Shown here: one piece after another, positions 12,201 to 36,200 of the stretch
Numbering within the stretch: the first letter of the stretch is position 1
Layout: the number at the start of each line of letters is the position of its first letter
Origin: an uncultured Planctomycetia bacterium
GTDB lineage: Bacteria > Omnitrophota > Gorgyraeia > 2-02-FULL-51-18
DNA length: 36,982 nucleotides
NCBI GenBank assembly: GCA_964492015.1
Contig: CAZBIH010000002.1
Span: 1-36,982, forward strand
Direction: 5' to 3'
The notes under the pieces: model-generated
The model's database searches: none
What the model saw: only the letters and a program-made list of their open reading frames with translations
What the model was told of the DNA's origin: nothing
Position numbers and translations under genes: made by a program

Positions 12201-15200
12201 TAGTGATAGGCCTCTTGCCGGATGATCTTGGATTCTCCCGTGGAATACTCCTTGTCGCGGCCCAAGACCCTGCGGGCGATCTGGATCAAGTCCATGAAAT
12301 CAAGGCCTGGGTCTTCTTTGAATTTTATCCTCGTGAGGGAATCATACAGGTCCCACAGATATCTCTCGGTGTCCTCGGAGATACCCACTCTCAGGTGAAG
12401 ATAGCCGGCGATTTCGGAATAATTTTTAAATTTATCGGAGGATGTTGAAACGCTAACCGGCAAATCATTTTCCTGATCGTCATCGCCCTTGGATGCGGCT
12501 GATCTTTTATCTATTTTAGATTTCGCTCCGGATTGAACGTAATCCGAGATCATTTTTGAGGTAGTTTCTCCGATAAGCATTCTTTTGTTAAGGACCTCGG
12601 AAAGTTTTTCATAGGGCACCTGGCTTATTTGGTCCGCGGTCAAGGTTGGTTGCATTTCAAGGATGCTGGCTTCAATTACCTTTTTAATGGAGCGAGCCAG
12701 GATCAGCATATGCTCAGTGTCCATGCCCTGCATCCGCAGCCGACGCACGACAGCCAAAGTTTCCTGCTGATAAAGCCCTGCCTTTTTAGAGACATAAGAG
12801 GCGATACGCTCGATCGTCTCTTCCTCGATCGACGGGATCCCCACATACTGCACCAGCGGCCGGTTCATGAAAGAGTCATCCTGGATCGTGTGATCGCGGT
12901 GCATCGTGAACACAAACTGCAAATTGGGCGGCAGCACCACCGTCTCTCCGCGGTCAGGCACTTCTACTCTCTTTTCCCACAACACCGGATTGAGCTGGAC
13001 ACGCACGCGGCCCGGGAGCGCTTCCACGTTGTCCATGATGAACGTGTAGCGATTCTCGGGGTCCGCGGCGGCCGCATGGGCCATCTTCACCAATAGACCG
13101 TCCTGCCATTCCATCAGATCTTTCCACCGGTCAGGCTCCTTTAGATAAGTCGCGATCGCCATTTTCAGAACGCGGTCTTTCTGAAGCTCCGGATCAGTTG
13201 ACCAGGCTTGGTAATATTCTTCTACCTCACTATCTTCTAAAGCGAGGATCACTTTAAGCGCTTCGCGGATCCCGTCGACATTGACGAGCCTGGCATTGAT
13301 CAGGCGATGATTCACTTCCTGCGCTTCCATCACCGGCTTGGGCATGTACATTCCAAAGAGTTCTCGTCGCCTTGAAAATCCGCTGGCTGAAAGCCGCACA
13401 GTTTTTCCATCCTGTTTATCGATACGCTCAAGCACAGTTTCAACCACGGGAGAATTCTCAGAGTCCACCATAAGAAGTAGCGGCCTTGACACCTGCGCGG
13501 CACGCTCGATCATCGCTTCGATCGAGACCTCTAGGGGTACTTCTTCTCCTGCGGGGGAACGATCCAAGTGCTCATAGTCTCCATACGCGATGATCTGCTC
13601 GATGCGACGATTCAGATCGCCGCGCAAGGAAACTGAATGCATCAGCGCTTTACCGAACAGTGCCCGATACTCCGGAGACTGAAACATATCTGAAAGGACC
13701 TTTTCAAATTCTTTGCGGGCCTCCGGTGTCGCGATCACACGGCCGTAAATATTGAACGCGGTCAAAATAAAGAGCTCGAGTACATTCTGGAATCCTTCCT
13801 GACGCAGATAATATTGGCTAAAATCCACGTTGAAGCGCACAAGCTCTCGAAACGTGACCGGATGATCTCCGCCGACAGGATAGCGCTTGACCAGATCCAG
13901 CATCTTGCGATTTAGATCAATGCTCAGCCCAATAACCTCTTCCTGCTCGGAGCGAGTGAGCGTCAGGCGCTTGCCGGTAAAATATTCGGCGACATAGTGC
14001 TCCACTAGCTCCGCATACGGAGAATCCGGGGCCCCGCCTTTTAAGATCTCAAAAAATGAGGCGAAGAAAAGCCCGCGAGCAGCGGGCCCGGCTTCAAGCT
14101 TCATATTCAAATACAAATAAGCCGCGAATTCTTCCTGCATGAAGTTGTCCTTGGTCACCAATTTCTTAAGCTCCGCCAGATTCTGCGTCGGAAGTTTCTT
14201 GCGTATCGCGTCAGGAATAAAACTCAAAAGCGCCTGCTCATACGTGAGCGTGATCCCATGCGCCGCTAAAAATTTGATCACAGAATCCAACGGGGAATCG
14301 GAAGCGAGACGAGCTCCCTCCCAAGCTTTTTTAGCCTCGCCAGCCAGCCATTCTTCGGTTCTTTCATAGATCTCTTTGTCTTTAAATCGATCATGGATCA
14401 ACACCATAGCTTCTTTCAATTCCTGGACTACACGCCATGTCAGTTTCCCGGCGCGGCTCATCGCGATCGCGTATTCAAGATAAGACTGAATGGGTGTGAT
14501 AATTCCACCCAGAGATTTCACTCTCTCCGGGTCCGTGTTATTTTCGATGAGAAACAAAAGTTCCTTGTCCAAAGCATAGGACGGCAACTCGCCTTTTTTG
14601 ACCGAGCGCGACATCGTGAGCATCACTCCGAGTTCTCGTGATGCAAAATGATTGAATCGCGCGTACATCGCGCTCAAAAAATTATTCTCCAAATACGGCG
14701 CTTCGAGCTTTTCTTTTTGTACAGTCTCGTACAACTGCGTCAGGTAAGATAGAAGCTGTCCATAAGGAGCGGCTTCCTTAAGAACTGCTCTCGTCCGACT
14801 CGCCACTTCACCCAGAAGCTGCCTCAAGCCCTCAGGATACACTTCAAATTGCGAGGCAATCTCATCGGGTGAAGCTTGCACAAGGTCCTTCTCAAACCAA
14901 TCCCGAACAATCTGGATAAAACCAAGACGCGTATCCATCAGTCGCGAATGCGGGGTCTGATTCTCGGTGGCCAGCAAAAATTCGTTCACCAACGGAAAGA
15001 TTCCCGGATGATGAACGGCTTCGGCCAGGAGAGCTTCGATAAAAACAGAGTAGCCTTTTTCATAAAAATGGTTGATCGAGGCGTAACCGACGTCCAAATA
15101 TTTTATCAATGCGGCCGCGATCTCGGGCTCTCTCCATCCAGAAAGAAGAGCCAGAGCCGCATTTTGCCTGATCACAAAAATTTCATCGGCAGGGGTCACT

Positions 15201-18200
15201 CTACCATTGTCGGCAAGTTCCTTAAGAACGACCAACGCGAGCTCCCTGTCCATGGACCGCTTGGGATGAACCTTCAAAAACTCGACAACCTCTTTACGCA
15301 AGAAAAGCGAAGAATGTTCCAAATACTTGACTGCAAATTTTTCATGGCCCGCCACCACATAACCCATCGGGTATTGGCCGCTCTTCAAATAAAAAACAAA
15401 CCTCGCCTCGGGAAGAACCCCGGAATCTTTTTGGAGAACAAACCCGGAAACCAGCTTTTCTGCCAATGGCAGGGAAGAGACTGAAAAAGGCCTCTCATCT
15501 ATTGAAGCGTTCGCAGCGGCCAGGTATAATTCGGAAGCAAATTTTGCGGCGCCATCCACTTTGACTGCCTCGATCACCTGACGGTCAAGCATCAAGAAAT
15601 AAAACCGGGCCTCAGGATCGTGGCGCTGACTCAAGATCTCTTTTGCCGCCATACTCTCATCACGGTCTTTCAGCTCAGCCATGGTTTTCTTAAATAACTC
15701 CAAAGGCGGCATCCTCCAAAGCTCCCTATTTTGGAGATACCCGATCACCCCGCGATAAGACGACACAAACGGCGTTCCCAGCATCTGTTTCCACCAACGG
15801 AAAAAAAACTTCACCTTCCACCACCACGAAATTTTCACAGGCTCTTGATCTCCTCTATCCTCTTCTCTCTCTCCTCTATCCTGACTTAATCTCGCCCCCT
15901 TCGGATACGCCAATTCATGAAAATACTCCACCGTCCACGAAAAACGCTTTTCCGCGGGAACATGAGCGGAGAGAACATGAAGCTCTTCCACGAGTCCCAG
16001 GATCCGGTTTTCGTTGAGTAAGCCATCCGCTTCCAGAAAAACAATATAAGCGCGAAAATGATTATAAATATCCTTGAGTCCGCTTTTTACTTTGTCGGGC
16101 TTGAGAAAAATCAGGCCCATCAGGGTATTTTCGCGGATCATTTGCATAATTCTTGGATCGACCACATAAGCCGGTGTCTGCTCCAGCTTCACTTCCTGGA
16201 TCAGGCTGTGGCTGAACTCAAAGTTTTTGATCCAATTCGTCACTTCATTTATTTCGTCAAGCGTCACTTCCGCGCGGCGCTTGGGATCCCTGAAATACGC
16301 GTCTAAAAAATCTCGAACAAATTGATCGGAGCCATGCTGTCTCAAGATCTCCACAAAATGCATCGCCCGAACCAGAGCCTCTTCGATCCGGAAAGTGCCC
16401 TTGGCAGCCAGTGCCTGCTGTTCGATAAAAAAAGCAATCATCACATCTTTTAATTCCGGAGAATAATATTTAAAGTATTCCTGGATCTGTCCGGCTTGGG
16501 CAGCGATAAAAAGCTTGCTCGCATTTTTAAACCCAGCCCACACCTGGCTGTCTTTGGCAATAGGGATGTCCAAGGTAAAGTATTGGGATTTGTACAGGAA
16601 TAACATAAAAAGAGGCATGAGACCCGTGTCTTCAGGTAGACGTTTGCCCACACGAATCACAAAATCCTTAAGAAGCTGGACACCCGTTATATCCATATTC
16701 CCAATGAAAGGCGCCTGTGTCTCCACAAATTCACGCAAGATCTCTAAACTGTCTTTCTCGGAACTATCCGCAAATCTGAGAGCAGCCTCAACTCTCAAAA
16801 TATCAGATACCTCGGTTTTTTTCATCGCCAGGATCTTTTGCGCAGTGGTCTTATCCATTCGCTCCATCAGATACGCAAACACGACTTCGCTATGATAACC
16901 ATCGGACTTGATGTAGCGCAAAGCCAGATCACCCGCATTAGGAATCCTGTCCGACCTGTCATAATCCTTCTGCATCACAAAATAGGCAAATTTCACCCCA
17001 TCTCCGATTGTTTTGGGCCGTTTTTTGATCACGCGGCCCATCACAGACATTGCTCCATTAAGGATTTTTCTGGAAGGAATAGGTTTTTGAGACAGAAGAG
17101 ACCATGCCAGACGCTCTATTTTTGGGATACGAGCGGCTCTGCGATAGCCCCCGGCTAAAATATCCCGGTAAAAAACGGCGGCCGGCCCTTCCCTCAGATC
17201 GAGCTCCATCCTCAAGGCGATCACGATCGCTTTTTCTTGATCTTCTTTGTTGGACAACGCAATATGCTCCGCCAAATAACGCGTGGACTGCGTCCGAAGC
17301 TTACCACTCTCCACCAAAAAAACCGCCGGCTTAAAATCCAACCGGTAAAAATCGATCAGCCCGTGCTTGGACCCAAACGCGACCGGCAGGAGCCTCCACG
17401 CCCACAGGGTCTTCTCCCAACGGCTCATCGGATAAAAATCCACCTCGCTTTTTCCATTTTCAATTTTCAATTTTCCATCCGTTATATCTTTTTGATTTTC
17501 TCTTCCCTCTAACCTCTCTCCTCTATCCCGACTTAATCTCGCCCCCGCCCTCTCATCCAAATATTTTTTCAAAAACTCCAACGCTTTCAGATTGCGATAT
17601 TCGATCGAAGGACGTGGGGTTCTTTGTTTAAGCACAGAGTGAAGTACGGTGAACTGCTCCAAAAGATCGAGTATGAGCAGTTCATTCACCTGATCGGAAT
17701 GATGAGCTCCAAAATTTGCGAGAGCTTCAAATGCCTCATCCGCATGCCCGCCGGTGAATCCGATCACTTTTTCCAAAAAGCGGGTGCCTCGTATGCCTGG
17801 ATACCGGGAATCCGGAAACACATAAGCGTCAAGGCTCGACAGAAACCCGAAAGTGTGTGCTGTCGTCAGAGGCGCCTGATTCCAGATCCGCTTTAAAAAT
17901 CCATACCCAAAGACAGGTGCTCGCAAAACAACGGAGTGAATCTGGGCATGCGACCCGAAATAGCCGCTCAAATCTTTTTTGACACGCTTATGAAACCAAT
18001 AAACCAGGGCTTGGGCCTGTGATCTTGATATTTTGGCTTTTTGTGTGGCAGCCCCCATTTCATAACCAACTTCCGAATCGGTAAGACCACCGACACGGAT
18101 CGCCATCGAGATCATATCCAATGCCCGGGAATAAGCGGGAACATCGGGATTGTTCTTCTTGCCCGAAACCGCCCCCTTCTGCCGCGTCAGTTTGAGGAAT

Positions 18201-21200
18201 GCCTTGAGCGACTGGGGCTTTTCAAGAAGATCTTTTTTACGGTCGAGCCACAGCGTCATCGCGGCCGGGCCTGGATCTTTGAGGATCTTTTTAAGATACG
18301 AAGCTGAGCCTGGAAGAATAAATTCCATCCTGAAGATCAGCGGCAGATACACCACCAGGAAATGCGTTCCCAGTACCTGCACTTCCGGCTCCATACGTTG
18401 GTTGACGCGATGCCACTCCCGGCGCAGAGCCCAAATAGCCTCGGCGGATCTGCGGACATCCTCAGCGCTTCGATCCCATCCGTCATCGGGCAATTGCAGT
18501 ACCTCGAGAACATAGGTGAGGTTCTGGTTGGTTGGTCCGACACTTTTACCCCATTGGACAAAAGCCTGCCAAACCACTTCTTCTTTAGTGCCATGGATCC
18601 TCTTCAAGGCCCAAAGCGACTGGGCTAAGTGGATTTTGTCAGTCATAAATGAACTTAGCTCTTGTAGGTCTTTCCATCTCCAGGCAGCCTCGGCCGGTGT
18701 CCAACCCAGAAGATGCGTGACCGCGTCGTGTTGAGGATTTTGGGGATCAAAATCCTGTCCTTGAATTCCTTCAAGAAGTCTCTGGGCGTAGGGTTGGGCC
18801 GCACCATGCGCCAGAGCGAGGGCCATTTTGTTCCACATACGTCCTTTATTTCTTATGCCTGAAAATATGCCCAGAGCCGGAAGACCAAAGCTCTCGACGA
18901 TCTTCGCAATCTCGTCATATTCCACGGGACTTACATGAAGGCGTGTCCGGCGTGGATCCCGGAGATGATCCAGCACCCGGACAAAAAATGGAACGGATCG
19001 AAGCTGTTGAATGTCGGTAAAATACCGGACCGCCGCCCGGCGAATGGTGGTATCGGGGTCTGTCCACACAACTCTCCTCAAGCGGGACGCTGTGCCGGAA
19101 TAGGTTTTTCCCGTTTTTCCGAGCGCTCGGATAATTGCTTCGCGGTACCGTGCGTCTCCCAATTTTCCAGGTTTAAGCCATTCATCAACGATCGAAACAA
19201 GGATTGGCGCGGCGTCCTTGGCTTGGTCGCCAAACTCCGCCAGGATCTCGGCGAAAATCTGCCGGTTCGGATTGGTTTTATCCGCCAAGTGATGGAGAAG
19301 ATGAGGAATCGCCTCGGGGCCGATCTTAACCAGCGCGTCGCGGGATTCCCGATAAGGATTGCTTCCTTGAGTAGTAGTAAAGCTGATGTCTTTCCTTCTT
19401 ACAACATTACAGAGTTCCCAAATGGCCTCTTGGGCAGCGGGTCCGATATTGCCCAATTCCATCGCCGCCGCGACCCGTTTTTCCCCATTAGGATCATTCA
19501 GTTGCACAATGAGCTGTCGAACATGTTCAGGACTGGAGTCTGCCAACCTCGCCCCTCGACTTTTTTCTAAAATAAACTCCACTATCAGGGCCTGAATACG
19601 CTTGTGAGCCAAGCCTTCCTTTTTAAAAGTTTTTTCCAGTAGAGTTAAATCCTCATTCAATGCAGCAATTTCATACTCACGAACAGGATGGTCCTTGGAA
19701 ATTTTCACCAACGCCTGAAAAGCCTGGTCGGTAAGTGTTCCGGAAAGGTCTAAAACTTTTTCCAAAAAGCGGGTGTCCTTGATCTCGCGAATACGGGTAT
19801 TCACTAACGCATAATCACCGAGTGATAAAAGATAGCCATAAATTTCATTTTTTTTCTTGCTGGACGGACCCTGAGAAGCTTCGATTTTTTTGAGAAAATT
19901 AGTACTGATCCAACCATAGGGCTCTTTGCCAGATACAACCAGGCGGCGATATAAATAATTCAGCCCATGCAAGGTCTCGCCAAATCCTATTAACGATCCC
20001 GAGCGGTAGACCGTCCTAACCATGTCAGGATCAAGAAGAGTTTTCTGTAATTTTTCAATTGGCGCCCTTCCAAATCGCCAGTATTTTTCGATGAAGGCTT
20101 CGTCCCTGATTCCGTCTAGATAAACTTCTAACTCCGAAAGTATTCCCGGCCAGCTATAGATGGGTGCCTTTTGGCGCATTCGATCATCTTTGATCAGCGC
20201 CTGAAATATCTCCCAAATAGCCTGTCTGTTTCTGACAGGCGCCACGTGATGCCTAAGCAGGCCGAAGAACCTGGTTTTGGACATCGTCAAGAGATCTTGG
20301 CCTCTTGACGTTTGGATCTCATGCTCACCCCAACTGCCATGTTCCACGGACGGAATCCACCACAAAAGATCTTTGCCCGACGCGTCCAGCTCTGACTCAT
20401 CGGATAAATGACGCATAAAATCCGCTTGGTCAAATCCCGGCAACCAATTATTACGTCTTTCCTCAGATTTATATCCGACCTTGAATCGACGCAGCAAACT
20501 TGCGATCTGTGTTTCTTCTTTCGAAGATCTCAGCGGTTTTAACAGCGCCGCTAAAAATAAATTTTCCACCGCAGATTCATCCCAGGCCAAATAAGTCCTT
20601 AAAACCTGTCTCACACGCAATTGCTTTCTCGCGGGAATCAAAAGTATCGCCGCAGCAGTCGCCCACTCATAGTCATTGTGCTCCATGGTCCGCTGAAGGG
20701 CATTCGCAAGAAAACCCACCTGGTCCCGGCTAAAGTAAGAATTATTAGAAAGCCTAGCCCCCTGCGGCAGCAATCCTTCCTCCAAATATTTCACCACCAT
20801 CCTCTGACGCTCGTCGGGTGTTTTCTCTGATAAATGCCTGGCGCTGCCGTCGATCATGTGGATCTCATCCAAAAGTTTCAGCGCTTTCTGTTCCGTCGCG
20901 CCGTCGGGACTGCTTTCCGCATACACGCCAAGCACCGCCAAAGCTTCTCCCGCATGAGCGCCGGCATACTTCATGATATTTCTCAAGAAACGCGTCCCTC
21001 GGAGATTGGGGTAAATCGAATTTTCAAATACCCACCGGTCCAAGAACGGGAGATTTTCAAAAGCCTTGTCCGCCGTGAGGGGGGATTGCATCACGATCCG
21101 GGTTAAAAACAGTGGATGAAGCACTGGCGAGTTTTGGCGCAGCCGAAGTACCAGTTCATTAATCGATTCCCTGAGGTAGAAATACACATGATCTTTGCCG

Positions 21201-24200
21201 CCACCATCCAAATACGGTACGCGCTTCTCGATTTCTGTTAGAAGTTGTCTGTTCGTGATGAGAACGTGTGCTTTTGACAGATACCTCGTCAACGCCTCAA
21301 GCGGATTCACGACATCCGGAGTCCGTGATCTGAACGAAATCCCGATGAGATCCTGCCAGTTCGAAAGAAGGTCTTTGAACTGCATAAAATCAGCTACGGA
21401 CTTGAGAGCATAAAAATTGTCTTTTTTTGCGATACCTACCTGATTGACTGCGATCAGAGGTATGAAGATGTGCCGGATCTCGGAGTCTTCGGACCAAACA
21501 TAATCTTGTAAAAAAGGCTGGAACACATCCGGATAAAGAAAAGGAACCCCAGCTTCTTCCCGCGTCTGGCCCAGATAGCCCAGAGCTGCCCTGAAAACCT
21601 GATCCGTTTCCGGATTCGACAGGACATGCTCGCGCCTGCCCTGCCGGGCGAGTTTGGAATCTAGGGTTAGGTAGGGGCCATTGGAGAGAGTCGCAGATTT
21701 GAAGTTTTTAACTACCCATTGAAAAACAACTTTGTACCACATCGAGCCATATTCACTCGGAACATGAGCCATCGCTCTTTTAAATTTTGTTACTTGATTC
21801 GGCGTTGTCAAAAAATTATTTATCTCCAGATCCATCGCCACACTATTTAATGCACGCTCAAAATAGTCTTTCCCCATCCAGCGGGGCCCCAAGACCATCG
21901 CAATAAAGGAGCTGTCCAGATTTGCCACACTGCTCTGCGGATCAAGAAAGTGTTCTCTAATCTCCTGGTAGACTCGCGCTTCCCCCAGATGCGGAATGAG
22001 CGCAAGAGCTGCCCGTTCCCTCGAGTCGGGACTCGCCGACGGCGTAAAAAACGCCAGCATTGTCCCCACTTCGCGGGAGTCCAGATATCCAAAGTCTTCT
22101 TTCTTTCCTCTTCCCTTTAACCTCTCCCCTTTATCCTGACTTAATCTCGCCCCCGTCCTCTTATCCAAATATTCTTTAATAAATTCCGCCGCCTTCAATT
22201 CACGGTATTCCCGGGATGCCGGAGGCGTTTTCAGGCTAAAGCCATAAGAGAGCACTGTCAATTCTTCCAAAATTTCCAATTCCAGATCTTCAGCAACTAG
22301 ATCGGGACGCAACCGAGCAAAATCCGCCAGCCTCAGAAGCGTGTCGCCCGCGTGGGAACCGGCCGCATCCATGATCTTCTGCAAAAAATGGAGGCCTTTG
22401 ATAAGCTTGTGCGGGGATTTCATCAAAACGTACCCGTTGAGCTCCGGCAATTTTTTAAAAACAGAATTAAACTGATTGGGAGCCTGCTGGCTGATATGAA
22501 AGGGGAATCTAAATTTTAAGACCGGCAAGTCCTGGCTCAATCCGACAACCGGGAGGTTTCGAAGATAATTGAAAATATAGGTTCGTATTTCCCGATCAAA
22601 ATCCCGGATCAGCTCAAGAGGAATGGCCGGCGCAAGAGATCCTTCTTTGATTTCTTTTTTTCTGTCTTCCAAATGCGCATAGACTACCCATGGGATCCCC
22701 ATGGAAAACATAAAAGAAGCACGGTCCAGCGCCCGGAAATAGGCCTCCGTATCCAGCGAAGCCCTGTTGCCGGGCAGATCCCTCACCCATCGCGTGAATT
22801 CCACGAATTCTTCAAAACCATCCGGATTTTTAAGAATTTCTTTTTTTCTTTGCAAAAATCGTATCAGCGACGCCGGCCCCGATGTTTTAAGAAGCCTTTT
22901 CATTGCTAAAGCTGATCCCGGAATCAAAAATTCGAGTTTAAACACCAGCGGTAAGTAGATGTTGTTGGAAAGCTCATCCAAGGGCCGGGCCTCCGGCTCT
23001 ACTTTTCCATAGACGCGTGCCCACTCGACGCTCAGGGAACGAATTGCCGCGGCCGATCTTTGGACTTCTTCGGGAGTCCGGTCCCATTTGCCGTCAAGCA
23101 TAAGAATTGCTGTAAGCACGGACAGGCCGTATGTAGGCGCCAGACTGTTGACCCATGTGGTATACGCCCGCCACGCATTGCTTTCTCCGGGACCGTATTG
23201 GCGCTTGAACTCCCAAAGTTTTTCCGCCACATATCGCTTGTCAACCGCATGGCGCGCCAACCGCTGCACGTAGGGCCACCGGCTCTCAAGCTCTTCGGTC
23301 GTCCAGCCAAAAAGATGAGTCAGCGCGTCGTGTTCTGGGTTCGACGCGTTAAAAGTCTCCTGATCGATCGTATTCATCAGAAGGGGTTCGGCTTGCGACA
23401 TCGCCGTCTCATGAGCCAGTGTGAGCATCGAGTCATCCCAATCCCATCCCTTTTGTCTCATGCGTGAAAATTCAGCCAGAGCGGAAATTCCTATGCTCTT
23501 GATGATTTGTTTATACGTCTCGGGATTCCTGTATAAGCCTCCTTGACGTTGTCGGACACTCTGCTTCAACATACGGACAAAAAATGGAACTGATTTAGGC
23601 CCTTGGAGTTGGGCAATCATCTGGGCTGCTACATCACGATTAGTTATATCGAGATCTGTCCACAGAACTTTTCTCATGCGAGAGAGAGTACCGGGATAAG
23701 TCTTTCCCGTTTTTCCAAGCGCTTTAATAATAGCTCCTCGATAGCCTGGCATACCTAATTTTCCCGGTTTGAGCCACTCATCTACTATTGAAACAAGGAT
23801 CGGCGCGGCATCCTTGGCCTCGTCACCAAATTCAGCGAGAGCGTCGGCGAAGGATTGCCGGTCCGGATTGGTTTGGTCCGCCAGATGAAAGAGAAGATGA
23901 GGGATCGCCGCAGGACCGATCTTAACCAGCGCGTCGCGGGCTTCCCGATAGAGAGCGCTTCCCTGAGTAGTAGCAAAGCTACTATCTCCCCTTCTTACAA
24001 CATTACAGAGTTCCCAAATAGCCTCTTGGGCAGCAGGTCCAATATTACCCAATTCTGTCGCCGCCGCGACCCGTTTATTCCCATTCGGATCATTCAATTG
24101 CGCAATAAGCTGTCGAACATGTTCAGGACTGGAATCCGCAAGCCTCGCCCCCTGCGGAACCGCCAACCCGCGCACATAATCCCCCATCCACTGAAAACGA

Positions 24201-27200
24201 CGTTCCACGGGAGAATTTTTCTCAAGGAGAAAAAGGTTTTCTCTGAGGCCCAGGACCGTCTGCTCCGTCAATGACTCAGTCTTTTTTTGATTCTTCAAAT
24301 AAATCAAATAATCGTCATAAACCAACCGAAACTCGCGGGTGATCTCGCCCGATGGACGAAAGATCGCGCCCATGAGAGCATTTTCTTCGAAGATCCGAAA
24401 GATCACGGGGTCCGCGGCATCGGGAGATTCGGCGGCCGCCTTATAATTCTTGGCCAATAAATGATTATAAAATTCCGCGTTGGGATCTGAATGCTCCCGC
24501 AGGACGATCATGGAGGCGAGAAAATGAGGATCAATATTCAAATGGTGTTCCTCGGTAACACGGTTAAAAGAGGCTTCTTTGGCGAGCGTAAACAGGGATT
24601 TCGAGCGGACTTCTTTGCCCCGCGCAAATAGCAGCGCCCTTGGGAACACCGACCTGTAAAAATGCCAGACAGATCCGGACGCCCAGGCGTATTTGAAAAA
24701 ACGGACTGCCCATACAATCTTCTCTTTGAATATAAAAGGTTTTCTTGAAAAATCCTTCGGAGTTTCTATTTTCGAATTCTTCGCCAGCCTCGCCGCAGCC
24801 AAAGAAAGCGGTAAAATTGACCCTTCGGAGAGCGCTGTGTTATACTTCTCCATATCAGTAGCCGGAGAGACCTGCTTATGACTAAAATTATTATTAACAG
24901 TTACATCGTCGCCGATCCCCAGATTTGTCATGGGAAACCCACGTTCAAAGGGACCCGTGTCATGGTCTGGCAAATCCTCGAATTGCTGGCCGCCGGAGAA
25001 ACTTTCCGGCAAATTCAAAGAGGATTTCCTTCTCTCACCGCCAAGCACGTGAAAGCTGCTCTCGAATACGCCAGCTCTCTCACCCGGGAGAACTTCGTCA
25101 TTGTCAATACCCACTCCCCGCTTCCTACTTGACGAAAACGTCAGGGATGAATTGGGTCCGTTTCTAGCCTCTGAGCGGTTCGATTCAAAACCATCCCCGC
25201 GCTCCACAGACGATAAAGTCATCGCCGGTATTTCCAAGAAAGAAAAAAGAGTACTCGTCACCAATGATGAGGATTTCTGCCGGTATACCCATGATGAGAT
25301 ATTTTCGGTGGTCTGGCTAAGAATTCCCCAGAATGAGCCCAACGTTCTTATCAGCTCTTTCCGAGAATTAGTCCACCACTTCAAAGATTTCGAAGGCAAG
25401 TTGATTGTGCTCACGCCCGGCAAATGGACAGATTCCAGACTAGGCGAAAGAATTAGGTTTGATTCATAGGATTTCGCCAACCGTGCTCCCGATTTAAATT
25501 CATACCCCTGAATATACTCGGCGATCTTACTCTGGCGATCATGATTTTCCATAGGCTCACGGCTCAGCCTATCGTTCAATAGAAATAGCGCGTCGTTCAA
25601 TCCCAGGATGTCAAATTCACTGATCCTGTCATCATGGCTTTTGGACAGTTGGGCAAGAGCTTCCAAAGCCGGCACAAAACTGGGGCCGGTGAGATCTAGG
25701 ACTTTTTCAAGAAATTTTGTTCCCTTGATCTCGGAAGATTTGCTGTCATTTTTGACAAAAGGTTGAAGGCGCAGCAAACTGTCGTAGACCCTGTTCGCGA
25801 CCTCATCAGAGTCAAAGTCCGGCAAAGAAAGTTCGATCTTTTCAAGCAGATCGACGGTAAGCCAGGCGGTGATATCCGCCCGCCTGGTAAAAATGGGGTT
25901 CAGCGAAGAGATCAAACGATGCAGTCCAGAAAGACTACTCCCTTTCCCGCTCACTTTGCCTTGATAAGCCGCCTTGACGACTCTCGGATCCACGAGGAGT
26001 TTCCGCTCTTTTTCGGAAAGATAATACCGTCCGCTTGGAGGATCCTGAACAAAAACGCTCTCGACATAATCGATCAGCTGATCCCAAACCCGCGTCCAAT
26101 GATCGTGCGGAGCCCGCCTCCCAAGTTTATCGGTAGAAATAAGTTCACGAAAAAGACGCCAAATGATCTCCCTTTTTTCCGGATCTACTTCCCTATCCAT
26201 GAGCAGGCGCAAAAACCGGCTCTTGGACATCGTCTTAAGATCTTGCGAACGAAGGATATCCGCCTCAAACTCCGTTTCATTGAAATGTCCAGGCAGAGAA
26301 CCCCCCTGCCAAGCCCATAAAATATCCATCGCCGCCAAGTCGACTGTATCGCTCTGCGGCAAGCGTTTAAAAAGCAAATCGGAAAAATCAATATCTTTCC
26401 AAATATCTTTATCAAATTCGACAGACCGGAACGACTTTAAAAAATCCCAATACGTTTGCTCAAACATAGACCGTCGGAGAGGCTTTAAAAGAGCCTGGAT
26501 AAAAATTTCATCAAGGTCTTTATTTTTTGAGGCTTTTAAATAATTTTTCACAAGCTCGCGGATCCGGGGATCCCTCCTATAAGGAATCAAAAGCATGGCG
26601 AGCGCGGATGTCCTGGCGGGTGGATGTGATGGGTTTTTACTTTGAAGTAAAACGTATTGCTTCGTATAAGCCAACTGTTTATCGGTTAGATATCCTTTCC
26701 TTCCGCCCTCAACCTTCGACTTGTCTTTCTTCGCCAATCTCGCCCCCGATTTAAATTCATATCCTTGGATAAACTCCGCTACCATATGCTGACGCTCATA
26801 ATTTTCCATCGGCTCGGTACTGAGCTTCTTCTCCAACGCGAAAAGCGCATCATTCAATCCCAAAATATCAAACTCTCTGATCTCTCCGTTATGGTCTTTG
26901 GAGAGTTTAATCAGAGCTCTCAGCGCCTGCAAAGAACTGGGCCCAGTGAGATCCAGGACTTTCTCAAGAAATTTTGTCCCGCGAATTTCGTCGGAAGCGC
27001 TGTCATTTTTTACGAACGGCCGGAGGCTCAGGAGGCCGTTATAAACCTCGATCTTGGCTTCATGAAGCTCAGAGGCCGGCAGAGAAAGTTCGATCTTTTC
27101 CAGAAGGCCGGCTGTCAGCCAGTTCGAAAGATCTTCTTTCTCGAGTTCCTGGATGTGCTCAATAAAATAGCGCAGCCCAAAAAGCTTATTGCTGGTCCAA

Positions 27201-30200
27201 TCCTCCCGGCTGTGATAAGCCGCCATGACAACACTTGGATCCAAGAAGATCTCCCGCTCCTTTTCCGAAAGGAAGTACCTTGCAAAATTTAATTTTGGCC
27301 CTTGCTTTCCGCCGATACTCATCTCATAATTAAAAACGAAATCAATATATTCCGTTAATTGGCGTAAAACATCCGTCCAATAGCTGTCCGGAATCCGGGT
27401 TTTAAGCTGACTATCCGAAACAAGTCCCCGAAAGAGGCTCCAAATGATCTCGCTCTTTCGCTTTTTGTCTCTTGAGGCTGTCACTTTACTCCGTAATAGC
27501 CGCAAGAAGCGGCTTTTAGACATGGTTTTGAGATCTTGCCCGCGGATGACGTCAACCTTGGGTTTCACTTCATCAAAAAATTCATCGATTACTCCGGGCC
27601 TGTGCTCATCTTTCCAAGCCCAAAGAATGTCCCGCGTGGCCAGATCTACTTTCTCATCCTGCGGTAGATGCCTTATCAGCACATCTATTGCGTTCGTGTT
27701 TAAGCTGCGCCAAATATCTCTGGTGAAGTCTAAGGTGCGTGTAATATATCGGATCAAAGTTGCTTCAAATGCTTGGCTTCTTAATTTTTTTGAAAGCGCT
27801 TGGATAAATATCTCATCTGTATTTCTATTCTCCGAGGCTTTCAAATAATCTTTCAGGAGTTTACGGATCTCAACATCCCCGCGATACGGAATCAGGAGAA
27901 TAGCAAGCACGCTATCCCTGTACGACGATTGAGATGGCCTTTTGATCTCATTGAAAAGCGCCGCTTTTACGTAAGCCAACTGATCATCCGTCAGATATCC
28001 CCTGTTTTTTCTTCTTTCCTCTTTCCTCTTCCCTCTTCCCTGCCTTTCCGCCAATCTCGCCCCCGCCGCATCCCCCAAATATTTTTTCACAAACTCAGAA
28101 GCCCTGACTTCCCTGAGCCTCGGCGACATCGACGGCAAATACTGATGAAACACCGTAAATTGCTCCAAGAGCTCCTGCTCCAGCGACTCGTTCACAAGGC
28201 CCGGATGCTGTTCGGCAAAGTCCCTCAGCATCCCCAGGCTCTCCACCGCCTGCCAGCCGGTGAACTCGATGATCTTTTCTAAAAATCGCGTGCCTCTTAT
28301 TTCAGGATAAGCGGACTCTCCAAAAACATAACGGTCCAAAAATGGCAGCCACTTCAAAATCCTGTCACTTTCCGGGGAGTACCTGCCAAAGACCTGTATC
28401 AGAAATTCTTTCCGTAAAAGATAGGAAGGATTTTTACCCGTTATATCCTCGGGCTTAAAAAATTTAAAAACTTCTACTGCTAGCCGCTCCTGGAGCCCTT
28501 CGATCAGTATCGGAAACGCTCGTGAGGGCTGCCTGTGAATGACAGAAAGAATGGACCTCATGTTATCTTCCGCGATCATGACCGCTATGTTTCCAAGGCC
28601 CAAAAGCTCCATAGAGGAGACCAGATCCAGGACTTGAGAAGCCGCTTTGATATCGATCCCGGCTCCGGCAGCCCGGAATTGCTCGCGAATGAACGCCATT
28701 TGTTCCACAAACCCGGATTTTTCAAGCGCCCTTCTTTTGGCCGATAAAAACTGCGTCACCGAATCCGCCCGGCCCGATGCCTTGAGCAGGTTTTCTAAAT
28801 TAGAAGCAGAGCCCGGCAGGAGAAGTTCGAGCTGCCAGAGGATCGGCACATCATAACTTTCAAAAATGTTTTTCGTGACACGGACTTCGGGCTCATTTTT
28901 TTCGTCATAGGCGGGCCACTGCGAGATGAGAGATCGGATATCCGCCACTGATGCTTTGGCGGACTCAAGATCTATTTGAAATGCCTGCCCCTGGGCACGG
29001 ATCGCTTTTGAAACCGTTTCAAAATACTGGGGCCCCGCGCTGCGGGCGAGCTCCGCGTAGACCGGCCAGACAGAGGGCATTTTTTCGCCCATTTCTCTTT
29101 TTAGATGCCAGAGCTGTTCGGCGAGCGCTTTCTTTTCGATCCCCGCTTGAGCCAAAAGGTGCAGATCCAGCCAGCGGCTCTTAAGCTCTTCCGGAGACCA
29201 GCCCAAAAAGAAACCGAGCGCGTCGTTCCTGGGATCCTCAGCGCGAAAAGAGGCGCTATGAAGCGCCTCCAGGAAAACGGAGGCATTAGAAGTCACTGCT
29301 TCCCGGGCAAGTACCGTGATCTTCTGGTCTCGCTCCGGATCGCCCGTTTTCAGATCACTTAAAGGTTTAGCGGCCTCGACACCAAAATCCAGGACAAGCC
29401 TCCGGTAAAAATCAAGATCTCCAAGATCTCTGTATTCACCCGGATTTTTTGTTCCCCACATCAGGGAGACAAAATATCCGATGGACTTGGTCCCTTCGAT
29501 CCGGGCAATAGCCTCTCCGGCCGTATGACGAACTTCTGGAACAGGATCCAGCAACAACGCTCTTTTTATCGCCGGCAACGTGCCGGGATCATGCGCGTCC
29601 ACAGCGCTCAGAGCTAATAGGATCTCTTGCCGGTAGGATGCAAACGTCCTTGAATATCTATCCATGATCGAAATCAGGACCGGCGCCGCGGAGGACGCCT
29701 TGTCGCCAAATCGCGCCAGGATCTGGGCAAAAGGCTGACGCGCCGGATTGGTCTCATCCGCCAGATGATGGATCAGATGCGGGATCACCTCCGGTCCGAT
29801 CTTGAACAACGCTTCCGCCGCCTCCGCTGAGGGACCCTTGGAGTCATCGCTGGCGGAAACATTGTCTTTACGCCGCACCAAATTGCACAGCTCCCAAGCA
29901 GCCTCGATCGCCTCCGGGCCCAGGAGCCCCAACTTTTGAGCCACTAATTGGCGTATCTCTATTTCCGGATCACTTAAAAGCCCGATCAACCTTTGAATTT
30001 CCTCTCCCCTCTTTCCTCTAACCTCTTCCCTGTTTTCAGCCAGTCTCGCCGCGCTATCCGCTTTCTGATTCAGTTCTGTCCAAAATTTTGACGTCAAATC
30101 CACCCGATCACCATTTGGGATCTGTTCCGCTCTCGCTAGAATCGTCAGAGCCTCTTTCAAATCTAAAATCGTCTGCTCAGAAAGCAACCTCTTCCCGTTC

Positions 30201-33200
30201 ATCACAAGAAGATAATGTTCATACATAGAGAAAGAGTTGACTTGTCCAAACTGATGCAATTGCGCAATCAACAAAAATACCTCTTTGTCCAAAACGTAAA
30301 GAGGGAGTTTTCCTTCGGCGACAGATCCGGCGATCGAAAAAATAATCTGTGTAAGATCAAAGATATAAGTCTGCCCCGTCTTGAGATAAATATCCTCCAT
30401 AAGGTCTGCTGTAAAAAATTTCTTCAGGATCTCATCCGGAAGCTTTGGATCTATTTCAAAAGCGTCTTCCATGATCCGGACTGTCGTAATAAGATCTTTC
30501 TTGGGGCCCGCTTTCATCTTTTTGATCAATTCAAAGATCACGTGCCAATAATATGAAAAAATACCCATGGCAAGAACCACTTTTACTGTTTTTGGATCGC
30601 CCTCAAAAACCCTGTAGATCTCCGCTCTTAACAATTTCATATCTGCCCGCATTAGAAGTCCGCCGCCGAGATTCCTATTTTTCTCAAAGTTGTACGCACA
30701 GAGTTCAAGCGCAAGTAGGATATATTTGGGATCGATCTTTGATCGGGCCAAAAGTTCCTGCACAAAGATCTGTTGTCCCGTTTTTTCGTAGGTATCACGC
30801 TCTATTGGGGTTGCCACGAATTGGCTTAATATTTCTCTGGCCTTAGGCTCGTCATAACGGTCCAGGAGCTTCATCGCCGCCATTTGTTGAATATCATTTG
30901 GAAGGTCCGACATATTTCCCCGGCGCATTACCTGATCGGTTGTGCGACCCATATCATATTTCAGATAATGCATGGCCATCGGACCCAACATGCCCGCCGT
31001 GGACGGGGTCTGATGAAGTTCAATAGCCAATTCAATATCATTCGGCACGTGAGTTGCCTCTTCATAGTTTTTTATCCAAAGAAGGTGAACCAGCTTCATC
31101 CGGTCATCCAGCGCCGTAGGATTCAACCGGTATATTCTCGCCAAAAGATCCGACGGAGAGAAAAGGTTCGCGACCCACGACTGATACTTGATCAAATGCT
31201 CCCAGGTCACTTGAGCCGCCACCGGCATCATTGCCGCCTCATCAAATCGCTTGTCCAACAGACGGTCATAAAATCGCGCGGTTTCATCATCCCGGCTTCT
31301 TAGTTTTAAAACTGACCGATATTGATTCAGTATCTTGGGTACATCTAATGTTACACCTTGAATAATGTCCCCCATTAGACGCTCTAAAGACTTGTTTTGT
31401 GATTCGGAGTGGACCTTCCAATAGGCAAAAGGACCGCCGCTTCTCTCAACAGTCCACACAAAGCGCATAAACTCAACCACATAGATAAAAATCTTTACCG
31501 GAAGCAGACGCTGACCCAAACCATCCGGCAACATCGCCCGATAAATTAATTTCAACAGGCCAGCCGTTTCTCGCAAGCTTCGTTTTTCCTCTTTCCTCTC
31601 CCCTCTATCCTCTACCCCGCTTTTAGCCAATCTCGCCCCCATTTCACCTTGAGCCTTAGAAAGAAGCTCCGCCATAAATTGCGCGACCCTCTCATATCTC
31701 TGCGGTGGTTCGTATTGATCCGCCAATAGCGCTATCGCTTCTTTGAGCTCCATGACGACCCGTTGGGTCAGCTTGTCTTGGCTCTTTAGGGCCCGCACAT
31801 AATCAAAATAATTTTTAAAAAGATCTCCCACCATGAGATGAGCCCGAGTATTTTTAACGATCAGGTTAATAAGCTCAGTGTCTAGAACATAACTTTCAAG
31901 CTTTTCTTTTTTCACATCTTCAGCTACTTGAATGCCTATCAAAAGAAAATCAGCTGCGAAGTTCCCTGATTGTTTTGATATTGTGTCAACAACATCAGGA
32001 CTCAAAAATGTCAGATCCAGACCTTTCAGTCTGGCATCGACCAATCTCCATCCAAGCTTGATAAGAATGCCGCCGATAAATCCCCTCCGATCCGCCTGGT
32101 TCTCACGATTCTTAAGGATCAACTCTGACAGTACAGGGTAGTTTTTATCGTCTACAAATCGAAGCTGTTGGCGGATAAATTCAGGATCTGCGCTAACCCA
32201 AGAGGGATCCGTGGACTTCTGAATCATTCCAGCCATTGCGTCACGGTTGTTAAAAATCATCCTCCCTGAATCACCGCGAGCCAAAATACTCGAAGTGGAA
32301 TTTTGATTGATGTGCATCCGGATGTGAAAATATAGAGTCAACAAAAGCGGCAGATACTGATCGTCCGCCGCCACGAGCCTTATTAAGTGAGAAACAAATC
32401 CATTCCTTTCCGCATAGCTTTTCATCTCTGGAAAATAATCTCGCTCAATAAATCGAGCTAGCGCTTCGGCGACTCCCGGCTCCGCGACATGATCCAAAAG
32501 CTTGATGGCCGCGGCTTGAGTAACCTCGGTCGAAATTCTCATCGGTTTGGTCCGTCCGATCCCATACCCAGATTTTATTTTCTCAAGTACCTCCAACGCC
32601 GCCTCTTTGTCCATTTTTTGGATGAAAAAGTCGACAGTTCGTCCCCCTCCGTCCGTTTTAAACAATTCTTGAGCATATTGCCACGCGCCCGGCACCTGAT
32701 CGGCGGAATCATAATCTGCCTTGTCGAGAAAATAATAAAACTTTGCCTTGTCGCTGACTTGATCCGGCTGTTTCTTCATCAGGACATCCATTAATCTCCT
32801 AGAGACCTTGATCAACTTTTCCGATGAAGAGTTTTCAATCGCTTCGATGAACATCGCGCTTGCCCAACGTCCGGCGTCCTCAAATCGCGTGGCCTGTCCC
32901 CACCGGCCTTGATACGCCAAATAATAAAACTGAGCCTCCGCATCCTGCCTGCGTCTCAGGATCTCAGCCGCCGCCATCGATCCGTCCGTGGTCAAAAATA
33001 AGACCTTTCCTGATTCCAGTTTTTTCCTGAGAATCTGACTCCTGAACTGTCCGGGTTTTAAATAGACACCCAAAGCGGCCTTTAAAAGCAGAAAAGGCTC
33101 TTCTTCGCCGAACAAATTATCCTCGATCATCCAAAACACATCTTTAAGGTCCGCAAATGAGTAAAAATAAAGATGCGTCCAGTACCGCGGCAAATACCTG

Positions 33201-36200
33201 AAAAATATCCCGATTTTCTGCAGGGTCGACAAGCCTCTAACCTCTTCCCCGCCCTTCGCCAGCCGCGCCCCCTGTCCAAAGTTGTATTCGCTCAGGTACT
33301 CCGCAATCCTCTCCTGCCGTCTGGCGTCTTCCCAATGAGCGTCCCGAAGCGTTCCATCTAGAAGAAACAACGCATCATTCAAACCCAGGAGATCATGTTC
33401 TGTCATTCCATTCGGCCGCTTGGCTAAGATAGCCTTCAACGCAGTGAACGCCCGCGCAGCAAACGGACCTGTCATTTTCAACACAGTTTCCAAAAAGCGA
33501 GTTCCGTGGATCTCCTTTGTCGATGCGTCAGGATTCATATAGCGTCCGAGCTCCCACAACGCAGCGTAAACTCCTTTTTTTGCCTCATCATTCTGAGGAC
33601 TCGGCAAGGTGGTTTCGATCGCGATTAAAAGTTCCGGTGACAATCGCTCAATCATCATTCTTTGCTCTTGAGTCTGGATGTCCTTTCCGAGAGTTGAGTG
33701 AATAAATTTCTCTATTGAATCCAGCGGGTATCCCGAACCATTGTCGGAATGCAAATAAATGCTTTGTAGCACCGCTGAGTTTAACGCCAGAAGAGTTTCC
33801 TTTTGGGACAACTCTCTGGTTAGCGCATTATGTGCCGCAAACCGTTCCGAAAAAATAGCAGTAAGATAATGCGTTAGCTGGAGGAGGAGCGCCGCATGAT
33901 CCGCCGATCCAAATTTATTTTTGATCTTCGGATCCGTGGTGATTTGCTGATACGTGTTCCTGATCCACTTCACATGCCATGGAAGACGCCCGGATGTGAT
34001 CACAAGCTGTCTGGAAATAATAGAATCAGGCACAGAATCGATACCCGATGACTGAAGAGAATGCCCCAGAATTGCCAACACTTTTGTTTCAAAGGGAACA
34101 TTAGTTTCTCGATATTCGTAGCCCGCTTTGTACGCGAGAACCCATAGCAGTTCTCTTGCGACTTTATCCAGACCCCGTCGCCGATTCTGATGCGCACGCC
34201 ACAAATCCAGAGAGATCGGTGCTGCCAGCCGGAACGCACCGCTATTTACAATAAAATGTTCGGCATTATCCATTAGATTTTTAGCCCATTTGGGACCTAG
34301 TAGAGTCGAAGCGAAATGCGTATCACTTCCCCACTTAATCAAATGATAACGAAGCGCGTCCGCCACGAAGGTCAAGTGCCGATAGGGAAAAAGAAGGCTT
34401 GCCGCCGCCGAAGACTCGTTGGATCTTTTCTCATGATTCCATCCTTGCGTGGGATCTGTAATTTGTTTGATCAAATTCTTTATTGCAAGCTCGTTCAAAA
34501 ATTCTTTTTTCTCTTTTTCCTCCTCTTCCTTTCGCCCTCCGTCTTCCGTCTTCGGCCTGCTTTTCTTTGCCAACCTCGCCGCACTCACTGCCGCCTTCCA
34601 ATCCATCCCCGCAATATCCCGAACAAACATATCCCGGTTCCCCAGCGTGTCCGTGGCGATCTGGCGGATCATGAGAGAGCTTACGGCTGAAGGCGCCGGC
34701 GCAGACCCGGAGCTTATTCTCTGTCTCAACAAAAGTTCCTCATAACGGCGCGTGTTCGTTTCTTCAAGGATCTGCGGCACGATCGAGATGTAGGAAATAT
34801 TTTTAGACTTAAGGATCGATTTCAAATTCGGCGCGTGATAACCGCCGGTGATCAGCACGGCTTTCTCTTCAATTTTCAATTTTCCATTTTCCATTTCAAA
34901 AAGCATATTCTGTACAAATTTTTTGTCCCTCTCATAGGTGAGCGAATAAAATTCCTCACAGAGCTCCGCGATATCGTTATAACCGGGCTCCAAAAATACC
35001 GCCTGCCCGTAGAATTCCTTCAGGTCCATGATCTTGCGGTTCAAAAATCCAGTGATCCTCTTCATGTCGTATTTTGTTTTTTGGCTGCGGTAGGTTTCGA
35101 AATCAGCCGGTGTCATTCGCAGGCTCAAAAGATCCCCGAGAGCCCGAATATTTTTATCCGCCTGGACCAGAGCCTCTTCGTCCGGCGTCTGAACAAGAGC
35201 TCCAAAAACTTCCTCTTCAAGCGATCTCTGCTCCGCCAGCACGCGGACAGGAGAAAAAGCCTGGGCCTTTTTGAGATAGCGCAGATATTTGAAAAGTTCG
35301 GGATACCGCGCCTGAGAGGCTGTTCCGGCAAGCTTTTCTTCCAAGAGACAAAAATAGGCCTGCCGTACACAATTATTTTTACCGGACATTTTTTCAGGGT
35401 CCCTTTCCGCGCCGGAAACAGATCCAAGATCTTTCCTATCCGTGGCAGACAGCGCCGCGACAGCTTGAACCTGCTCTTCATTGGCCCGGTTAAAATCAAT
35501 GCGTCTTTCAAGATCCGACAACTGTTTGGAGTGTTTTAAGTGGGTGTATTTTTCTGTCTTAAGCTTGAGCATTTCTGCCATGCGGTACAAGGCTTCGGTA
35601 TATTCCGCCGCGGACAATTGGCCCTGCCTGAATTTTTTCGTCTGCTTATCGAGCGATAGGAGAACGGGGTTTTCAATACGCGGTTTTAGGATCTCGATTC
35701 CGTGAGCGGCCTTGGCGAGATAATTTTTAAAGCGCTCCCTGTTCTTGGCAACTTGCCGGTAAACGGACAATGCCTTTTCGTAGAGTGCCGGATCTTCCAC
35801 ACCCCAAAGCGTAAGCGGCAGATCGGAGGTCAGGTCGAGATACTCACTGCCCTGCAGCTCGCCTTTCATCAGATAAGACCTGGCGACTGTTTTCCTTTTT
35901 TCAGGACTTGCCAACGCCCTCAGGAAAAACAACGAAAGATCGCCTGAACCACCTTCTAAAAAAACAGAAGCTGTCTTTCCCTCCCCCCTCTTCCCCCTAT
36001 CCTCTTCCCTGAATAAATAGTCAAGGGTCTTCGCCACATTCAATTGCCCAGAAATATTCGTATGAGCATCCTGGATTAGAACAACGGTTTTAGAAATATT
36101 CGGCGCACGGTAGGCGTCTTCGATAGAGGCGATAGACTTGGGTAAATTGGGAAGTTCCCGGCGTGCCCAGCTCTTGGCATCGGCGTCAGAATTCCAACGG

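Follow-up and report, generated by a model that had tools for sequence, protein, structure and literature searches.

A Toxin-Antitoxin Cassette Antisense within a Giant Omnitrophota Gene, Probably of a Lineage Specialized for Life inside Genes

Introduction

How can a two-gene operon lie on one strand of a gene while the reading frame on the other strand runs through it without a stop codon? The question is raised by a stretch of DNA of 36,982 nucleotides (nt) from an uncultured Planctomycetia bacterium (GTDB lineage Bacteria; Omnitrophota; Gorgyraeia; 2-02-FULL-51-18), namely positions 1 to 36,982 of the forward strand of contig CAZBIH010000002.1 (NCBI GenBank assembly GCA_964492015.1), which is referred to below, at its full length, as the window. 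The minus strand of the window holds a giant gene, an uninterrupted open reading frame (ORF) of 11,999 codons (281..36280, from the ORF listing), and antisense to it lies a toxin-antitoxin (TA) cassette that consists of a DUF433 gene and a DUF5615 gene. A first-pass annotation, made from the sequence without database searches, had described a complete cassette of these two families at this position; the coordinates that it gave all check out, and the Pfam matches of both genes are significant.

The present analysis leads us to consider it likely that this is an intact, self-promoted VapBC-like TA cassette of a lineage that is specialized for antisense life inside genes. The nested architecture recurs in more than 60 independent loci.

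Results and Discussion

Genes and Signals of the Cassette

The antitoxin ORF (84 amino acids (aa), 24878..25132, plus strand; COG2442) matches the Pfam family DUF433 (PF04255) with an expectation value (E) of 5.4e-23 over profile positions 1-56 of 56. Profile matches in the PDB are 2ga1 (E 9e-5) and the VapB-type DUF433 protein 5af3 (E 0.015). The toxin ORF (122 aa, TTG start, 25101..25469, plus strand; COG4634, Mut7-C-like PIN) matches positions 2-108 of the 110 in the DUF5615 profile (PF18480; E 7.6e-11); its other matches are weak, to Mut7-C (E 0.004) and, in a profile search of the PDB, to PIN (E 0.3-0.5). Across 22 nested and classical homologues, annotated plasmid genes included, the toxin residues D11 and D56 never vary, and D58, T54, and E48 hardly do. 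Called homologues of the toxin number 91, with identities of up to 62%, while an exact look-up of the two window TA proteins among called genes found neither of them on record.

The two ORFs are adjacent and co-directional, with an overlap of 32 nt and the toxin in the +1 frame, and a promoter lies upstream of the antitoxin, which comes first. This is the layout of a TA operon, and it is the same in all relatives. The candidate promoter, located by consensus scoring (24817..24846, plus strand), is composed of TTGACC at 24817-24822, an 18-nt spacer, and a TG-n-TATACT element with the -10 hexamer at 24841-24846. It matches 10 of the 12 consensus positions, and the TG in front of the hexamer makes it an extended -10. 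A Shine-Dalgarno-like GGAGAG (24864..24869, plus strand) is found 8 nt before the ATG at 24878. The element TGnTATA(C/A)T is kept upstream of DUF433 in the bacterial relatives, nested and free-standing alike, and because of this conservation the cassette would be expected to be transcribed autonomously from its own promoter, in the direction opposite to that of the host gene.

The leader varies among the relatives. In many of them (L003, L006, L007, L034, L036, and L044 among others) the extended -10 is located just 6-10 nt before the antitoxin ATG, so that their antitoxin mRNAs would be leaderless. L002 and the window differ from these in having a leader of about 31-32 nt, counted from the -10 to the start codon, with a Shine-Dalgarno sequence. 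The promoter and leader region of the window also holds a direct repeat, CGGAGAGCGCTG and CGGAGAGACCTG, with the two copies 37 nt apart on the plus strand (24826-24837 and 24863-24874). Its core, CGGAGAG, starts at 24826 and 24863, and the second copy takes in the Shine-Dalgarno sequence. The repeat may be an operator, that is, a putative binding site of the DUF433 antitoxin.

The Open Antisense Frame

The giant minus-strand frame had been reported to cross the whole cassette without a stop, and this is indeed what we find, with 0 stops in 24797..25474 as compared to 11 and 20 in the other two minus frames. The frame is in codon register with the DUF433 ORF, which contains no TTA, CTA, or TCA codon; relative to the frame of the toxin it is shifted by one base. 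Both relations are as annotated. The read-through segment comprises 225 stop-free codons (24797..25471, minus strand). It is rich in Ser, as had also been noted, with 16.8% Ser as compared to 6.5% in the whole giant protein, and it has no Pfam match. An AlphaFold2 model of the antisense peptide, based on a shallow alignment, has a predicted local distance difference test score (pLDDT) of 44 and a predicted template modeling score (pTM) of 0.14, with almost no secondary structure.

The chance of such a frame was estimated by resampling the synonymous codons of the two ORFs from the giant ORF's own usage and shuffling the leader. This null gives a mean of 5.0 stops, compared to the 0 observed, and a probability of an open frame, P(open), of 0.0015. 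For the antitoxin and toxin parts separately, resampling gives 0.17 and 0.033, respectively. The open antisense frame is beyond chance. The naive (61/64)^231 estimate offered in the first-pass annotation overstated the significance, but its statement that chance is well below 1% stands with the shuffle test now run. Permutation of the codons within each ORF, which gives P values of 1.0 for the antitoxin and 0.15 for the toxin, was rejected as a null, as it is conditioned on a codon set already purged of stop-generating codons. For DUF433 it is uninformative because this ORF has no stop-generating codon to permute.

Selection on the Two Strands

The differences between the window and its relatives are distributed over sense codon positions 1, 2, and 3 as 14, 9, and 37 in the antitoxin gene and as 46, 30, and 76 in the toxin gene. 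The window antitoxin is 72-79% identical to the antitoxins of the nested relatives, while the identity of the antisense peptide between the window and the relatives is 41-46%. The peptide identity is this low, where that of the TA proteins is 62-79%, because the substitutions fall on antisense position 1. Purifying selection acts on the TA proteins and not on the antisense peptide, the antisense layer being just kept open. We consider the TA proteins to be the selected products because of the third-position bias, the higher sense identity, the invariant acidic residues, and the unfolded antisense peptide.

Related Cassettes

An HMMER scan of the antisense peptide (226 aa) against 1.84 billion representative proteins yielded 76 matching proteins, 31 of them at E ≤ 1e-10. 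Most hold the segment within longer proteins, of up to 6,089 aa, and 20 of the 75 that were scanned with Pfam have an Intein_splicing domain. The protein P0001 is an example: it contains an intein whose middle is the antisense of a DUF433/DUF5615 pair, with both genes intact on the opposite strand. Scans of genomes and metagenome contigs provided 109 loci, from Omnitrophota, Patescibacteria, Woesearchaeota, Pacearchaeota, Altiarchaeota, Atribacterota, and others, with 100 near-full-length cassettes in which both TA genes are intact.

The antisense frame in the same register is stop-free in 85 of these 100 cassettes. In 41 of them the host ORF extends by at least 100 aa, or to the contig end, beyond both sides of the cassette, in 20 it extends on one side only, and in 24 the open ORF is about as long as the cassette; the remaining 15 cassettes carry 3-8 stops in the register frame. 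Calculated locus by locus from codon usage, P(open) ranges from 0.000 to 0.46 and is mostly below 0.05, even at a guanine-cytosine (GC) content of 30%, where the other two frames carry 8-36 stops. Open cassettes are antisense to their neighboring genes in a ratio of 45:8, compared to 11:11, a random orientation, for the stop-carrying ones. Among the 40 nested loci that were scanned with Pfam, 24 are inteins, and the Pfam matches of these 40 hosts include no homing-endonuclease family, neither LAGLIDADG nor HNH.

Free-standing relatives and classical pairs served as controls. The free-standing gammaproteobacterial cassettes L004 and L010, which calibrate the codon-usage null, carry 8 and 6 stops, where 8.6 and 3.4 are expected. 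Among the called relatives ascertained from the sense side (54-62% identical to the window toxin), 6 of 7 carry 3-10 stops. Four annotated plasmid pairs (from Synechocystis, Thermus, Leptospira, and Nostoc) carry 4-12 stops and have a different overlap geometry. The free-standing relatives are found in ordinary TA/defense neighborhoods with HicA, BrnT, and AbiEii. The stop-free state follows residence inside host genes and not the protein family as such.

Some individual loci deserve mention. L118 (2954..4272), a close free-standing relative located beside a diversity-generating-retroelement-like pair (bAvd and reverse transcriptase), has the sole stop-free antisense frame among the seven sense-ascertained relatives. 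The host ORF of L006 contains two antisense cassettes, at about 177-825 and 1884-2478, and P0004 and P0073 also contain two or three; such hosts point to repeated colonization of, or duplication within, one gene. In the AT-rich DPANN loci L026 (7920..8639) and L103 (5956..6768) the cassette lies outside any larger ORF and is nevertheless faced by a full, ATG-started antisense ORF of 239-270 codons that is co-directional with the flanking genes, the one in L026 overlapping the stop codon of the upstream gene. Nesting alone leaves the open frames of these two copies unexplained. The DPANN operon copies suggest that translational transparency may matter outside ORFs too, for example by avoiding polarity.

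Residence in Inteins and Linkers

In a simple neighbor-joining tree of antitoxin and toxin, the window cassette groups with L002 (an Omnitrophota metagenome-assembled genome, MAG), L003, and L031, to which its concatenated TA proteins are 62-66% identical. All three of these cassettes reside in canonical inteins of Omnitrophota-type proteins, which have Cys1, TxxH, and, at the C-terminal end, HN with Thr next to it; L001 shows the splicing features as well. The window copy, instead, has no match to Intein_splicing or Hint, either in the 236-aa segment around the cassette or anywhere in the giant ORF. It is flanked directly by the sequences GARLAK (25472..25489, minus strand; aa 3598-3603), which ends the preceding module 2 nt from the toxin stop, and AARLAK (24779..24796, minus strand; aa 3829-3834), where the module series of the giant protein resumes. 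The first-pass annotation had recognized that the cassette coincides with a module boundary and has a junction copy on either side; the two copies are 693 nt (231 codons) apart. Its further reading, an insertion with duplication of, or recombination at, the junction, needs correction in one respect, as the copies are no recent target-site duplication: the DNA of GARLAK and AARLAK differs at 6 of 18 positions, with all differences synonymous except in the Gly/Ala codon. The recurrence of ARLA-X-ARLA in L031 and P0003 and the conservation of ARLA as a protein motif, both described below, point the same way. The flanking direct repeat is 10 nt long, with 9 of 10 positions identical, and coincides with the conserved LAK codons. 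A transposon or insertion sequence was considered and rejected, as only the two TA ORFs are present and there are neither terminal inverted repeats nor a clean duplication.

The ARLA flanks are met elsewhere. The host ORF of L031 (at least 2,400 aa), which encodes a homologue of the giant protein, shares the N-terminal domain of the latter (34% identity over 430 aa, E 6e-49) and reads ...GARLAE-ETPTQ-[intein with cassette]-TYLPKP...-GARMAD...; L031 thus has the ARLA-X-ARLA topology of the window, the difference being the intein that surrounds its cassette. The protein P0003 (1,379 aa), known from its protein sequence alone, has the order ARLA-cassette-AAARLA and shares nothing else with the giant ORF. 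The presence of ARLA on both sides in the window, P0003, and L031 invites the idea that these sites might be processed.

Other sites are of a different kind. L025 has a degenerate intein around its cassette. In L061 (2767..8637) and L066 (4654..10443) the cassette lies, with no intein, between diverged tandem copies of a host domain of about 150 aa with the pattern TDVKI.DK.EEK...GRISYLV.SSDG.FD.E.TTH. Since these cassettes lie between host modules without an intein, linker sites of this type are used repeatedly.

Proposed Mechanism

We propose that the lineage keeps the strand opposite the TA genes free of stops in one frame, the one in register with DUF433, and keeps the length of the whole cassette unit at a multiple of three, so that a host ORF could be translated straight through it. 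The usual home is the endonuclease-insertion loop of an intein, where the antisense peptide would be spliced out together with the intein, and linkers between repeated domains are the other homes. The window copy is a case with no intein; it occupies the linker that joins one module of an Omnitrophota-type giant protein to the next, with ARLA on both sides. Its antisense strand would be translated as a disordered, Ser-rich spacer of about 225 residues, which could be tolerable in a linker. It may have been an intein-borne copy that lost the intein, or a bare cassette transferred into an ARLA linker.

Such an arrangement could make the cassette difficult to lose. An imprecise deletion would destroy the host gene, only a precise in-frame deletion would remove the cassette, and its loss may in addition be penalized by the toxin. 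The element would thus be a selfish one, a view that we hold because the same cassettes occur in small inteins, domain linkers, and ordinary operons of unrelated hosts.

A number of observations weigh against the proposal of a gene-dwelling lineage. Collecting the 109 loci by means of the antisense peptide favors open frames, and the sense-ascertained sample is small (7 cassettes, 1 of them open). The 24 open cassettes outside any longer ORF are not fully explained by pure nesting. The borders of the window cassette are tight, only 2 nt past the toxin stop and about 20 nt past the -35, and show no intein remnant, which leaves an origin by intein loss conjectural; this copy also has neither mobility machinery nor terminal inverted repeats, and its flanks do not form a clean target-site duplication. 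A search for orthologues with 870 aa around the cassette returned only P0001, which was matched via the antisense segment of the cassette alone, and a metagenome scan with the downstream module of the giant protein found nothing. Finally, the transcription of the TA pair and the translation of the giant ORF through the cassette are both what we infer from the DNA.

Alternative Explanations

It could be argued that the open frame is a one-off accident, in which the inserted TA cassette was an ordinary one that by luck had no stops in the frame of the host, or shed them later. The first-pass annotation had this in mind when suggesting that only a stop-free insertion could survive in a needed gene; the survival logic is sound in principle, and the within-ORF permutation value for the toxin (P = 0.15) is compatible with it. 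However, the joint P is 0.0015, P0003 provides a second ARLA-flanked copy, and the stop-free state is shared by 85 of the 100 related cassettes in other hosts, including the three closest, intein-borne ones, which makes a lucky survivor of a single insertion very improbable. It is equally hard to believe that the cassette was misjoined at the repeated junction sequence during assembly. The gene is repeat-rich and its junction motif recurs about 20 times, but the shared junction DNA amounts to about 10-15 nt, below the assembly k-mer length, the insert is exactly 231 codons long and the frame then stays open for 8,170 further codons, the GC content is 0.49 in both cassette and host, and the same architecture is present in independent assemblies. 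Two host-specific ideas of the first-pass annotation, namely that the TA pair safeguards a deletion-prone giant gene by addiction and that convergent TA transcription tunes the distal giant mRNA, may apply but are not required by the evidence; the occurrence of the same cassettes in inteins, linkers, and operons of unrelated hosts points to a selfish element.

The antisense ORF might instead be a real gene or domain, a third component of the cassette, in which case the nested copies would be fusions and the frame itself functional. This would account for the 24 cassettes that hold a cassette-sized antisense ORF outside a longer ORF, some of them ATG-started and with co-directional neighbors, in genomes of which some have a GC content of just 29-33%. 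Against this, the peptide has no predicted fold and no Pfam match, its composition is of low complexity and Ser-rich, the substitutions hit antisense position 1, which is sense position 3, and the columns that are conserved in the antisense alignment are, by inspection, the most conserved motifs of the sense proteins; we consider a third component to be improbable. Another scenario, unlikely in our estimation but still worth weighing, is that the DUF433/DUF5615 pair is a mobility nuclease, an antisense substitute for the homing endonuclease that spreads the intein or cassette to empty alleles, ARLA linkers included. The cassette does fill the slot where inteins carry a homing endonuclease, with neither LAGLIDADG nor HNH in the 40 nested hosts, and several host ORFs contain two or more copies (L006, P0004, P0073). 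That the cassette moves follows from its presence in at least two kinds of intein (a bacterial one, CVTGDT...AHNT, and an archaeal one, CYDxxT...VLVRR...GNS) as well as in non-intein sites. On the other hand, the characterized members of the family are VapBC-type RNase toxin/antitoxin pairs (PMC3834315, PMC5499597), free-standing relatives sit among HicA, BrnT, and AbiEii, and the borders show no conserved target sequence or duplication. A DNA nuclease role of the PIN-like protein is speculation.

According to a more far-reaching and rather doubtful reading, the cassettes would be a new class of ORF-dwelling selfish elements (in Omnitrophota, the Candidate Phyla Radiation (CPR), and DPANN) that replace intein homing endonucleases, the PIN-like nuclease and its DNA-binding partner giving maintenance and/or homing, while in ARLA-modular giant proteins the ARLA junctions would be processed and so release the junk peptide. 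If this were true, ARLA processing would be a non-intein equivalent of protein splicing and would offer the first access to the way in which the giant proteins of Omnitrophota are divided up. The reading that we prefer is the one given above, namely a TA cassette of a lineage adapted to antisense residence.

The Giant Gene and Its Junctions

According to the Pfam scan, the giant protein is midasin-like and modular (all of its domains are encoded on the minus strand). HEAT_2 repeats occupy two stretches (about aa 2166-2259 and about aa 5709-5778). The protein also has several AAA_5 domains of the dynein/midasin type, with a midasin AAA lid (about aa 9300-9725), and a VWA domain (about aa 10378-10515). 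With this composition it is predicted to be a midasin- or MoxR-like protein. Judged by eye, it has an N-terminal hydrophobic leader, and a signal peptide is possible. Homologues of its N-terminal domain are present in Candidatus Omnitrophica MAGs. Elsewhere in the giant ORF, 10 of the longest plus-strand ORFs (148-234 aa) were inspected for other nested genes, and none has a Pfam match.

The protein is punctuated by about 20 [G/A]ARL[A/S/G] junctions that separate its modules (20 sites listed, window 1244..34582, minus strand). A conserved module end (...EY/F..x..GARLA) precedes every ARL junction, and the sequence beyond the junction is usually a linker rich in Lys, Arg, Glu, and Gly; the sites are alike at the DNA level too (GGGGCGAGRTTRGC). 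In the Omnitrophica homologues (27-45% identity) the ARLA motif is kept after the N-terminal domain, at about aa 560-600. ARLA is a motif of this Omnitrophota family that is conserved at the protein level. The ARL junction motif could be a processing, docking, or recombination signal.

Two modules, from aa 4044 and from aa 5576 onward (about 24151..22200 and 19541..17600, minus strand), open with a near-identical sequence, GARLADSSPEHVRQLI[A/V]QLNDPNG.KRVAAA.ELGNIGPAAQEAIWELCNVVRR..., and the modules at aa 2741-3179 and 3180-3598 are also paralogous to each other. Because of these internal duplications the giant gene is taken to be recombination-prone. At 3707..3775 (minus strand, aa 10836-10858) two junctions are merely 18 aa apart (GARLGNGKWKIENGKIGQGARLS), and a KLKIENGK-like peptide is also present after the junction at aa 6246. 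The 18-aa-spaced pair could represent a mini-module that has degenerated, or else a linker repeat.

Implications

Functional operons can escape gene callers altogether, because a longer host ORF covers them. As the two TA proteins of the window are not on record as called genes, TA and defense censuses of CPR, DPANN, and Omnitrophota may miss nested cassettes. For the study of overlapping genes, selection solely for a stop-free frame across more than 60 independent loci offers a clean natural system. For intein biology, the results suggest a payload other than the homing endonuclease, encoded on the opposite strand. For the giant Omnitrophota proteins, they mark the ARLA junctions as tolerant, and possibly processed, boundaries.

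Comparison with Known Systems

With more than 10,000 aa, HEAT repeats, and AAA_5/midasin-type ATPases, the host protein may be of the kind of the giant Omnitrophota "Archaeovorins", whose cleavage points are stated to be unknown (bioRxiv 10.1101/2023.11.21.568195). In that paper the terms toxin-antitoxin, intein, and antisense do not occur, and the ARLA junction motif did not turn up in the passages retrieved, although no search was aimed at ARLA. Two papers on Omnitrophota giant genes make no mention of inteins or antisense, and name toxin-antitoxin systems only among flanking or cargo genes. In the searchable literature, no paper combines an intein with DUF433, and nothing relevant was found for inteins with toxin-antitoxin, the antisense strand, the PIN domain, or CPR/DPANN; absence there is no proof of novelty.

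Concerning the TA family, the PIN-COG2442 pair is an experimentally validated VapBC-type TA (PMC3834315, PMC2701414), COG4634/DUF5615 has been classed as a Mut7-C-like PIN toxin (PMC5499597), and growth arrest neutralized by the antitoxin was shown for the related VapBC10 (PMC3834315). Like these PIN-COG2442 VapBC pairs (Synechocystis VapBC10, M. tuberculosis VapBC45), the window cassette has both protein families, the antitoxin first, overlapping ORFs, the acidic residues of a PIN-like toxin, and a promoter upstream of the antitoxin. The classical pairs differ in being free-standing, with a 4-nt ATGA overlap (toxin offset 2) and 4-12 antisense stops, whereas the clade of the window has an overlap of 23-41 nt (offset 1) and, in most antisense-ascertained copies, a stop-free antisense frame through which the host ORF reads.

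Between their splicing blocks B and F, inteins can have a loop that houses a homing endonuclease of the LAGLIDADG or HNH type. The cassettes of the relatives occupy the same permissive loop, where the peptide is removable by splicing, and likewise constitute a selfish payload in a selfish element. Unlike in endonuclease inteins, the payload consists of two TA genes, which form an operon under a promoter of their own and are encoded on the opposite strand, and there is no in-frame nuclease domain; the window copy itself, furthermore, has no intein.

As in other antisense-overlapping (nested) genes of prokaryotes, each strand of one stretch of DNA has a coding layer. The present case differs from these in that only the TA layer is constrained as protein while the other is kept open, and in that this is found at more than 60 loci in unrelated hosts. 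Each ingredient is known already, be it the TA family, the nuclease-carrying intein, or the gene that overlaps another in antisense. What is new, and apparently undescribed, is their combination, that is, a two-gene TA operon placed antisense in inteins and linkers, with the opposite strand stop-free throughout the lineage.

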